The translations under genes and the position numbers were made by a program. Below the pieces are notes generated by a model. That model was not told where the DNA came from and made no database searches. It worked only from the letters and a program-made list of their open reading frames with translations. From a virus (taxonomy: Duplodnaviria > Heunggongvirae > Uroviricota > Caudoviricetes): a DNA stretch of 33,231 nucleotides. The stretch is taken from the IMG/VR virus record IMGVR_UViG_2874956758_000003. One strand, written 5' to 3'. Shown in pieces: positions 30,046-31,200 of the stretch; within the stretch, counting starts at the first letter, position 1, and every line of letters begins with the position of its first letter.

Positions 30046-31200
30046 GAACACGGTGCGTATTTGTTGCTGATGTTCAATTACTGGCAAACAGGAAAGCCAA
30101 TACCCAAAAACAGGCTGGCAAAAATTGCTCGTCTAACTAACGAGCGATGGGCTGATGTGGAACAATCCTTGCGGGAGTTTTTTTGCGATAACGGCGAGGA
30201 ATGGGTGCATCTTCGGATTGAGCGCGACCTTAAAAATATCGTTTCAGCGCCAAGAGGGAAGAAATTACCAGATGGAGAAAATTTATCTGGATACAGGGGC
30301 TACGTTTATTTCGTGACCAGTACGGAAATGGATACTGTGAAGATCGGATATTCAAAAAATCCTTGGGCAAGGCTTGGAGAACTACGACGTAGCTACGGTA
30401 GTAATCTTAGCGTAGTAGCTACGATAAAAACCGTAGAAAAATCGGAATCATCAATTCATGCATTGCTATCTGATTATCGAGTTAATGGTGAATGGTTTGT
30501 TAAGAGTGAGTGTATTAAATCGTTAATAACACAAATCGTAGAAGGAAAAATAACTACTGTAGAAGCTACGAATAACTACGTTAGCAACTACGAAGTAGTT
30601 ACTACGACAACTACAAATACAGATACAGATCTAAAAGAATTAAACCCCACACATAACGCGCGCGTGCGCGAGAGTGCTCCGACCAGTGAGTCGAATAGTG
30701 CGCCATCGCAGGCAACGGAGCCCGGATATCTGGACGGCATGAGCGAACCCATCGGGAAATTTCCGATGACCGATGGCTGGCATCCGTCGCTGGATTTTCG
30801 ACGGCGGGCTGCACTGTGGGGAGTGGCTCTGCCGGAGCCGGAATTTACACCTGCTGAACTTGCCGCCTTCCGGGACTACTGGGCAGCGGAGGGGAAAGTT
30901 TTCACGCAGGTTCAGTGGGAGCAGAAATTCGCCCGTCACGTAAATCACGTCAGGGCGCAGGTTAAACCAGTCAGCAAGGGGGTGAGCCATGCAGCAGCGC
31001 CAGGTGGCACCGCATCACGGGCAGTTCAGGAAATTCGGGCAGCACGTGAGCAGTGGGAACGTGAAAACGGATTTATCAGCGACGGAAACGGCGTGGAAGC
31101 TGTGGGAACTCATGGGGGAGGTTTATTCGAACCGCTGGACCCGGAAGAACGGGGCCGCACCTTCGAAGCTCTGGATTGCACAGATTGGCGCGATGACTGA
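30046..31200 (+). pseudogene. replication initiator O-like gene (DUF1376-like / T5orf172-like / DnaT-like), 5'-truncated by IS600
   Basis: Frame is open from inside IS600 (track start 29908), so the native start is lost. Motifs: [20 protein letters not shown] (DUF1376-like), [31 protein letters not shown] and [16 protein letters not shown] (T5orf172-like), [13 protein letters not shown]...[21 protein letters not shown] (DnaT-like). Confidence 0.55.
30383..30607. repeat. two clusters of CTACG/CGTAG pentamer repeats flanking an AT-rich stretch (candidate ori iterons)
   Basis: Six copies in 30383-30437 and five in 30538-30607, separated by ~100 bp of AT-rich DNA, all inside the O-like coding region. 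Confidence 0.45.

Follow-up and report, generated by a model that had tools for sequence, protein, structure and literature searches.

Repeat arrays within a T5orf172-centred initiator gene of a Rac-like prophage remnant: a candidate in-gene replication origin

Introduction

The replication origin of phage lambda (in gene O) and oriL of phage SPP1 (in gene 38) both lie within the initiator gene, in or near the region for the inter-domain linker. G38P, the product of gene 38, represents the DnaD-like "replisome organizer" initiators. Classical iterons diverge quickly along with their initiator. A different association between an origin and a phage protein is found in Odn (Gp88) of phage ICP1, an origin-directed nuclease in which a RepA_N-like domain is joined to a T5orf172 domain and which acts against a satellite (PMC8263062). 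Here we analyse a 33,231-bp stretch of viral DNA (IMG/VR record IMGVR_UViG_2874956758_000003), the whole of which is called the window below. Near its right end lies a ydaU-type replication initiator gene, 5′-truncated by the insertion sequence IS600, which contains two arrays of CTACG/CGTAG repeats followed by an A-rich hexamer tract. In our comparisons of related loci, the repeats were under selection at the DNA level, were tied exclusively to initiators centred on T5orf172, and lay in a replication-module setting. We think it probable that positions 30382–30644 served a Rac-like lambdoid prophage as its replication origin, located within the phage's own initiator gene.

The locus resembles the lambda origin in several respects. 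The candidate origin is placed in an initiator gene, at the junction between the N-terminal and the partner-recruiting C-terminal modules; dyad-symmetric repeats precede an A/T-rich tract; the adjacent gene encodes a lambda-P-like loader; and the central protein/DNA segment is swapped as a unit between near-identical alleles. An in-gene position with the loader next and a conserved excess of dyad-symmetric sites, which served here to recognize a lambda-O-type arrangement, were both found. The differences are that lambda has four 19-bp iterons, whereas here half-sites of 4–5 bp occur in 3–13 copies in two arrays approximately 100–150 bp apart, that the motif is nearly constant across divergent relatives, and that the site-linked module is the GIY-YIG-like T5orf172. 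Homology to lambda O was not detected: a Pfam scan gave only DUF1376, T5orf172, MUG113 and DnaT, and no PHROG match was named O protein. With SPP1 G38P the window protein shares a two-part initiator plan (a winged-helix-type N-terminus and a variable C-terminus), an in-gene origin, here a candidate one, and a helicase or loader gene next, and some relatives in the T5orf172 family carry a Phg_2220_C C-terminus. To our knowledge, SPP1-type initiators have no nuclease-like central domain, and their AB boxes are unrelated to GTAG/CTAC.

The Rac prophage of Escherichia coli K-12, with YdaU and the origin oriJ, shares with the locus the same operon (a ydaS/cro-like gene, ydaT, ydaU, loader and DUF1627), a DUF1376 coding segment of approximately 95% DNA identity, and an (AMAGAT)n tract at the same position. 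The partner of K-12 YdaU is the ATP-binding protein YdaV, whereas the partner in the window is a P-like protein. Like Odn, the window protein fuses an initiator-type N-terminal domain to T5orf172 and is linked to origin repeats. Unlike Odn, which is a weapon against a satellite origin and is without a helicase-recruiting C-terminus, it occupies the initiator position of the phage itself, has DUF1376 at its N-terminus with no RepA_N hit, possesses an additional DnaT-like C-terminus, and carries the repeats in its own gene. It also differs from the GIY-YIG nucleases I-TevI, SLX1, UvrC and the Penelope-like endonuclease in that the second Tyr of YIG is replaced by Lys (KIG); we know of no GIY-YIG protein that acts as a replication initiator. 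In-gene origins, the DUF1376, T5orf172 and DnaT families, and the combination of T5orf172 with an origin-binding domain (Odn) are known already. The searchable literature yielded no description of T5orf172-centred initiators, of the GTAG/CTAC array or of the hexamer tract, and nothing on DUF1376 origins, the sequence of Rac oriJ or a mapped oriJ position.

Results and Discussion

Repeat arrays in the initiator gene

The features of the initiator gene are as follows.

30046..31200, + strand: 5′-truncated ydaU-type replication initiator gene, comprising the last 384 codons of a Rac-type ydaU
30046..30231, + strand: remnant of the DUF1376 N-terminal domain (Pfam), winged-helix-like in appearance
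30298..30501, + strand: T5orf172/MUG113 (GIY-YIG-like) domain (Pfam)
30382..30436, no strand: repeat cluster 1, six CTACG/CGTAG sites within the T5orf172 coding sequence
30437..30536, no strand: spacer between the clusters, encoding the remainder of the T5orf172 domain; 30% GC
30537..30614, no strand: repeat cluster 2, five CTACG/CGTAG sites (30537–30606) plus four more CTAC/GTAG cores, encoding a variable linker peptide
30613..30644, no strand: hexamer tract ACAAAT ACAGAT ACAGAT plus the A-rich tail CTAAAAGAATTAAA; candidate unwinding element
30760..30960, + strand: DnaT-like C-terminal domain of the single-stranded DNA-binding type (Pfam; Protein Data Bank (PDB) entry 6aep)

The 225-bp region 30382–30606 contained 11 CTACG/CGTAG sites in two clusters (30382–30436 and 30537–30606). 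A preliminary description of this DNA had reported the same 11 copies at coordinates one base off, and had also proposed an excess over chance, a Thr/Asn-rich linker peptide produced by the repeats, and a DUF1376/T5orf172/DnaT-like architecture. All of this was borne out; the peptide was present, and every Pfam domain match exceeded its curated cut-off. The rate outside the insert predicts 0.22 sites in this region (Poisson P(≥11) = 1e-15). Dinucleotide shuffles of the segment gave 1.1 ± 1.0 sites (maximum 6 in 5000), synonymous resampling of the encoded peptide 1.7 ± 1.2 (maximum 7 in 5000), and permutation of the segment's own synonymous codons 2.7 ± 1.3 (maximum 8 in 5000), and the observed count was above all of these shuffles and resamplings. 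The sites occupied codon phases 1, 2 and 3. When the 4-mer core CTAC/GTAG was counted, 17 sites were found in 30382–30614, and many were arranged as palindromes, namely CGTAGCTACG and CGTAG-tag-CTACG (both in cluster 1) and AACTAC-gaa-GTAGTT. The whole window contained 43 CTACG/CGTAG sites, 12 of them in the initiator segment; the twelfth, at 30300, was missing from two of four aligned close relatives. GC content was 37% in the central segment (30225–30650) versus 60% in 30651–31200, and only two GATC sites were present in the window gene.

Conservation of the arrays at the DNA level

DNA of relatives was drawn from viral contigs, GTDB genomes and metagenomes. All 28 loci with a T5orf172 segment at least 46% identical to that of the window, as well as locus L028 (36%), contained 6–13 CTACG/CGTAG sites. 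The best 250-bp interval in these loci always began 80–150 bp into the match, the site rate elsewhere in the loci was 0.3–2.4 per kb, and no denser cluster was observed elsewhere in the scanned regions (2.5–3 kb on each side). The named hosts were Escherichia, Phytobacter, Leclercia, Kosakonia and Pseudomonas, and locus GC content ranged from 0.47 to 0.59. When the loci were reduced to 15 distinct lineages (36–95% identical to the window in the segment) and subjected to synonymous resampling with each gene's own codon usage, all 15 exceeded expectation (6–13 sites observed versus 1.4–3.0 expected, P ≤ 0.001). The remainder of each open reading frame (ORF) in the 15 lineages showed no CTACG/CGTAG excess. 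Conservation of the repeats in homologues, which the preliminary description had set as a check on its proposal, was found in each of the 15 lineages.

Constraint was also visible at individual codons. In cluster 1, the codons for V-V-A-T-I..V were nearly fixed (GTA in 15/16, GTA in 12/14, GCT in 16/16, ACG in 16/16, ATA in 10/11 and GTA in 12/12), while at other four-fold degenerate codons of the same domain the share of the top codon was only 0.30–0.56. The layout of cluster 1, an interval of 105–148 bp, and cluster 2 was kept across lineages. Within cluster 2 the number of sites was conserved, while their positions and orientations turned over. In the layout as a whole, single sites came and went or changed orientation; at one position, CCGTAG is present in most lineages and its reverse complement, CTACGG, in L027 and L006. 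The family peptide motifs read like the DNA site translated in one frame or another, such as LRS (CTA CGT AGC), YV (TAC GTA) and AT (GCT ACG). Two loci retain the elements as non-coding DNA. In L006, a TAG within cluster 2 closes the ORF, and the hexamer tract and the final CTAC core lie beyond it; in L008, a deletion took most of the domain, and the array and an (ACAGAT)5 tract persist outside the called ORF. As judged by these comparisons, the CTACG/CGTAG repeats are kept by selection acting on the DNA.

RNA or single-stranded DNA structure was rejected as the main explanation for the arrays. RNAalifold, applied to 15 divergent sequences, returned one invariant 5-bp local palindrome and no covariation, and a single-sequence DNA fold score of z = −3.0 is expected from inverted repeats alone.

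A family of T5orf172-centred phage initiators

Among 5426 complete E. coli genomes, a ydaU-like sequence was present in 1880 and the T5orf172 segment in only 10. The ydaU flanks are approximately 90–96% identical with or without the segment, and in Rac-SA53, K-12 and strain 10153 the centre of the gene is an unrelated basic linker of approximately 60 amino acids (aa). The wider distribution is different. When 1.84 billion representative proteins were searched with the 142-aa central segment (phmmer), 4881 hits reached E ≤ 1e-3, and 101 representative clusters lay at E ≤ 1e-10; a word-indexed protein search returned only seven relatives, so that the family becomes visible through the exhaustive representative search. 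Most of the best 150 hits are proteins of 280–450 aa with T5orf172 at approximately residues 80–230. Their N-termini are DUF1376 or unannotated, and their C-termini are DnaT-like, Phg_2220_C or unannotated. The earlier view of T5orf172 as an insert thus holds relative to Rac-type YdaU, but not across the family, where, from this distribution, the domain is the constant core of a large group of phage initiators. The E. coli allele is a mosaic, in which the core of the T5orf172 family is joined to a Rac DnaT-like C-terminus.

DnaB is encoded by the gene following the initiator in L008 and in 6 of 10 further loci that were tested. In the window, this gene specifies a P-like loader; in L020 its product is a DnaC/IstB-like loader, and in L006 a DEAD-box helicase. 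Because helicase or loader genes are located next door, the T5orf172 proteins hold the place of the initiator in phage replication modules. Both the regulators upstream and the genes downstream vary between loci, and none is constant beside the arrays.

Distant members and the hexamer tract

A set of 13 distant members was examined, with matches 24–64% identical to another family member, P0110. In 12 of these, the scanned region contained 5–13 CTAC/GTAG cores versus 1.1–3.1 expected from the remainder of the locus, although the excess was weak in L126 (5 versus 3.1); the exception, L098, had only two cores. Most distant members are without cluster 1, which belongs to the window's subfamily only. 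Their cores are mostly located just before a hexamer tract, (ACAGAT)n, (ACAGAA)n, (GCAGAR)n or (AAAGAT)n, and are often paired as GTAGCTAC or CTACnGTAG palindromes. CTACG/CGTAG, described at first as the repeat unit, prevails in the window, but the core motif of the family as a whole is the GTAG/CTAC half-site. Standalone short T5orf172 ORFs had no such sites.

The AT-rich stretch of approximately 100 bp between the clusters had been proposed as the unwinding element. In the window it is indeed AT-rich (30% GC), but across the 15 lineages the mean AT content of the spacer is only 0.47–0.61. The hexamer tract of the subfamily, measured from +270 to +330 relative to the KIGYS codon, is the most AT-rich part on average, with means of 0.65 and 0.58. 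The tract is short, with 2–6 units in relatives in the form of (ACAGAT)n, (AAAGAT)n or (GCAGAR)n. In L128 (IMGVR_UViG_3300005915_002330, region 2501–3061), and also in L129, it is inverted, (TCTGTA/TCTGCT)n, and in L128 it encodes a peptide rich in S, V and A instead of T/D repeats. Since the inverted tract specifies a different peptide, conservation of the tract as DNA rather than as peptide is suggested, and its function would lie at the DNA level.

The number of hexamer units ranges from 2 to 6 between relatives (L001, L005, L017, L027 and L068) and near-identical E. coli alleles differ by one unit. In the comparison of close relatives within E. coli, one substitution creates a new CGTAG, and a 12-nt unit of cluster 2, AGTAGTTACTAC, differs in copy number, being duplicated in strains MB07081 and QML220601. 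The variation of the tract and of the 12-nt unit looks like microsatellite-type instability in a coding linker.

ydaU alleles without T5orf172 contain no CTACG/CGTAG sites and 0–1 CTAC/GTAG cores, while the hexamer tract is retained. The K-12 Rac ydaU gene instead carries TGTTCAAACA three times, twice in direct and once in inverted orientation (L160:2770–2835; at the same place in L002 and L161). They are located in the middle of the gene, where the window has its CTACG arrays, and just upstream of the (AMAGAT)n tract; 0.57 copies are expected, and three were reached in 9 of 200 shuffles. We regard these copies as candidate iterons of oriJ in Rac. The central segment of the protein thus changes together with the repeats in its coding DNA, which fits an origin-specificity module.

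Protein part associated with the sites

T5orf172 and the helices that follow it are the only constant partner of the arrays. In an AlphaFold2 model, the trailing helices comprise residues 155–165 and 172–188, and the predicted local distance difference test score (pLDDT) of the domain is 77–92. Because this is the only part of the protein that always travels with the array, T5orf172, through either the domain itself or the two trailing helices, is most likely the reader of the sites.

The other candidates were examined in the same manner. DUF1376 is an unlikely reader, as a domain differing at only 1–3 residues occurs in YdaU proteins without sites, and the sites are retained in members whose N-termini are unrelated (L006, L008, L027, L028 and many of the distant members). 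The C-terminus and the neighbouring gene were rejected as partners, since both vary across the family.

Residue conservation was determined in an alignment of the window protein with 110 family representatives (111 sequences). The Tyr of GYVY and the K, G, S, N, P, W and R of KIGxSxNPWxR were each invariant (111/111). The Glu of GEWF was present in 109 sequences, with Asp in the other two, and the upstream Glu..His pair was kept in 102 (Glu) and 98 (His). The window protein has the GIY-YIG-type active-site residues, including GEWF. We take the Tyr, Arg and Glu to be the GIY-YIG catalytic residues, on what is established for these nucleases and on a mutant of Odn. In that mutant, E180A, DNA cleavage was lost (PMC8263062), and we infer that the GEWF Glu corresponds to E180. 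One clade, comprising L019, L020–L026 and L070 (Kosakonia and viral contigs), departs from the pattern: the Glu..His pair is replaced (VEKSESSIH to VAKPKISVA), and GEWF has become GDWF or NSWF, with Asp or Ser for the key Glu. The same clade has the highest site count of all, 11–13, including an extra CGTAGCTACG. It may be a nuclease-dead branch, and the coincidence of a degraded active site with the most sites means that catalysis may be dispensable in some members.

A proposed mechanism and its difficulties

The proposed origin would consist of two parts: two arrays of a half-site with the core GTAG/CTAC, here mostly CTACG/CGTAG and often paired as CGTAGCTACG, CTACGTAG or CGTAG-n3-CTACG, and an A-rich hexamer tract, (ACAGAT)n, directly downstream of the arrays. 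Several initiator molecules would bind to the arrays, the DNA would melt at the neighbouring hexamer/A-rich tract, and the variable C-terminal domain, which is DnaT-like here, would then recruit the P-like loader and host DnaB; in relatives, the C-terminal domain would recruit the phage DnaB directly. That the layout is that of an in-gene origin had been recognized in the preliminary description, and this idea has since been strengthened by the DNA-level selection and by the helicase or loader gene that comes next in most loci checked; binding, unwinding and origin activity themselves are deduced from the layout and from the established precedents.

If the proposal is correct, T5orf172, a widespread domain of viral genomes described so far chiefly in homing endonucleases and in Odn, would be an origin-specific module, and the family would gain a searchable origin signature for prophages and viral contigs, namely a GTAG/CTAC array followed by a hexamer tract. 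It would also raise a question of initiator–origin co-evolution, as the site stays near constant while the protein diverges to approximately 25–35% identity. Such constancy suggests recognition by a pocket of the catalytic type, possibly with a nicking step.

Several observations weigh against this proposal. The motif is nearly unchanged among proteins that are only approximately 25–35% identical, and such near-invariance in a short motif is more reminiscent of a site that an enzyme recognizes or cleaves. The retention of the GIY-YIG-like residues (98–111 of 111) argues for catalysis over binding alone. In Odn and in the CapR-related homing endonucleases of ICP1, T5orf172 supplies the nuclease, and DNA binding falls to another domain (PMC8263062, PMC8096241), so that site recognition by T5orf172 would be without precedent in characterised proteins. 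The spacer is weakened as an unwinding element, being much less AT-rich in relatives. Neither a DnaA box nor an IHF consensus was found in the window gene; the K-12-type TGTTCAAACA repeat was likewise absent from it. Finally, in 50,697 phage records no tblastn match to the central segment exceeded 41% identity, and 72,556 plasmids gave one unrelated cyanobacterial hit; with no close homologue in isolated phages or plasmids, no mapped origin can be transferred to this locus.

Alternative explanations

Part of this evidence would be accommodated by an origin that works by nicking, with T5orf172 as a site-specific nickase at or beside the GTAG/CTAC palindromes. The cut would open the origin or provide a 3′-OH for strand-displacement (sigma/rolling-circle) synthesis, and the arrays would serve as cleavage or positioning sites. 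We regard this as a minority possibility. The motif barely changes across very divergent proteins, and nick sites of rolling-circle initiators likewise change little; GIY-YIG nicking is also known to prime DNA synthesis in Penelope-like retroelements. The near invariance of the GIY-YIG-like residues among the 111 sequences (Tyr and Arg in all, Glu or Asp at GEWF in all, and the Glu..His pair in most) points in the same direction, as does Odn, in which an origin-binding domain is combined with T5orf172 and an origin is cut (PMC8263062). However, 3–13 copies in both orientations would be unusual for a nick site, and the DnaB-type helicases and loaders that the modules specify or bring in are typical of theta-type initiation at a melted origin. 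Moreover, the clade with the degraded active site has the most sites, and a non-covalent nick offers no obvious route to termination or re-ligation. It is rather unlikely, in our estimate, that T5orf172 itself both recognizes and nicks the near-invariant array in its own gene, which would define a new class of origin-nicking initiators unrelated to HUH proteins; were this the case, the origin sequence of the class would be nearly universal in hosts from Escherichia to Pseudomonas. DNA-level selection shows that there is a function but not which, and the arrays could be a cis-regulatory or other non-origin element, with the true origin elsewhere. They would then be operator or roadblock sites for the initiator or for another phage or host protein, controlling transcription of the replication operon, or, in a variant of this idea, would serve recombination between phage modules. 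The location of the tract and arrays at the mosaic boundary of the E. coli ydaU alleles, where flanks are 95% identical and centres unrelated, is compatible with such a role, as is the microsatellite-like change in tract copy number. We nevertheless hold it improbable, considering that no neighbouring gene is constant beside the arrays, that origins are known to be laid out in this way, with palindrome arrays and an A-rich tract inside the leading gene of a replication module, and that the loci scanned contain no denser site cluster elsewhere.

T5orf172 might also be a selfish homing cassette, an in-frame homing-endonuclease insertion whose repeats are a by-product, either remnants or mimics of its target. 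Its sporadic occurrence in E. coli (10 of 5426 genomes, versus 1880 with a ydaU-like sequence), the near-identical flanks and the foreign, AT-rich composition (37% versus 60% GC) are in line with this, and T5orf172 genes of ICP1 have been described as putative homing endonucleases (PMC8263062; PMC10448857). Outside E. coli, however, the domain is a constant in-frame core within a single three-part architecture; it was found in frame in the initiator throughout the family, and not as a free-standing GIY-YIG homing endonuclease. A homing cassette would also leave unexplained the 6–13 synonymously constrained sites and their survival outside the ORF, and the presence of a different repeat, TGTTCAAACA in three copies, at the same spot in YdaU without T5orf172 fits an exchange of origin-specificity modules. 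We therefore consider a homing cassette very unlikely. The least likely explanation, to which we attach almost no weight, is that the repeats are a coding or compositional by-product of a peptide rich in Tyr, Val, Thr and Ala or of local base composition. The peptide does raise the expected count, to 1.4–3.0 versus 0.2 window-wide, but the observed count lies above all 5000 resamplings in the window and is significant in each of the 15 lineages. The use of all three codon phases, the fixed synonymous codons, the persistence of the array as non-coding DNA and that of the hexamer tract in inverted form also stand against it, and a by-product of this kind was ruled out on the synonymous resampling, the phases and the fixed codons.

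Truncation of the initiator gene and neighbouring genes

The initiator gene is flanked by the following features.

29100..30045, + strand: right-hand part of IS600 (IS3 family), 99.6% identical to annotated "IS3-like element IS600" copies
31193..31654, + strand: lambda-P-like helicase loader gene (Pfam Phage_lambda_P, 60.6 bits; PHROG 109, "P-like helicase loader")

DUF1376 (PF07120) matched aa 1–62 of the window ORF with 55.0 bits (cut-off 30.1), covering only profile positions 21–85, whereas positions 1–86 are matched in intact relatives; the match is partial because IS600 removed the start of the gene. T5orf172 and MUG113 matched aa 85–152 with 38.3 bits (cut-off 20) and 39.4 bits (cut-off 22.3), respectively. 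The Pfam DnaT DNA-binding domain matched aa 239–305 with 63.5 bits (cut-off 25), and PDB 6aep, "Primosomal protein 1", the solved C-terminal domain of DnaT, matched aa 235–304 (E = 1.8e-20). The full-length DnaT equivalog (NCBIfam PRK02854) was not reached (96.5 versus 201 bits, profile positions 80–157 only); judging from these profiles, the window protein has one domain in common with DnaT but is not DnaT itself.

Replacement of the native 5′ end by IS600, with a frame left open back to 29908, had been noted previously and agrees with our results. IS600 was identified by the NCBIfam IS3 transposase profile (324 bits) in addition to its DNA identity, and alignment with intact homologues placed the junction at 30046, with 41 N-terminal codons gone. 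The frame is open through IS600 to 29908, and nothing points to a relevance of this. The intact gene of E. coli MB07081 (NZ_CM129880, 2661291–2662523) encodes 410 aa and shows 96% DNA identity; strains A34 and QML220601 likewise carry an intact prophage. Because IS600 took the start codon and 41 codons, the window initiator is, by this alignment, a pseudogene. The array would accordingly be an origin left intact as a relic in a prophage remnant with a dead initiator, and the window itself a case of ordinary decay.

The start of the loader gene overlaps the initiator stop and was placed from annotated homologues, in which the overlap is 8 nt. A DUF1627 gene follows the P-like loader in the window. 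In intact relatives, the order is a cro-like gene, ydaT, the initiator, the P-like loader and DUF1627, that is, a Rac-like early-right operon. The DUF1627 gene of the window (31688–32401, + strand) matches only profile positions 1–123 of 155 and runs into a copy of IS2, whose TnpB (727 bits) is encoded at 32326–33231 on the opposite (−) strand. Insertion sequences thus sever the replication module on both sides, IS600 on the 5′ and IS2 on the 3′ side.

Upstream, an IS30-family transposase gene, apparently split over two frames (27947–28228 and 28170–29099, + strand), abuts IS600. With a published length of approximately 1.26 kb for IS600, the copy here would be 5′-truncated; the region may represent a nested or truncated arrangement of insertion sequences. 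A small ORF at 26700–27095 (+ strand) encodes, as judged by eye, an XRE-type helix-turn-helix protein, and the product of 27244–27627 (+ strand) contains an HExxH motif (AHELGHLILH) and weakly matches the spr1629 repressor/antitoxin family; the two would be an ImmA/IrrE-like protease and repressor pair. The window (1–33231) is rich in insertion sequences, with IS600, IS2, the IS30-family element and further ORFs of transposase size, and at most 44% of 20000–33231 was matched in one place by any complete E. coli genome, which suggests a Shigella-like genome rich in insertion sequences that contains a decayed lambdoid prophage.

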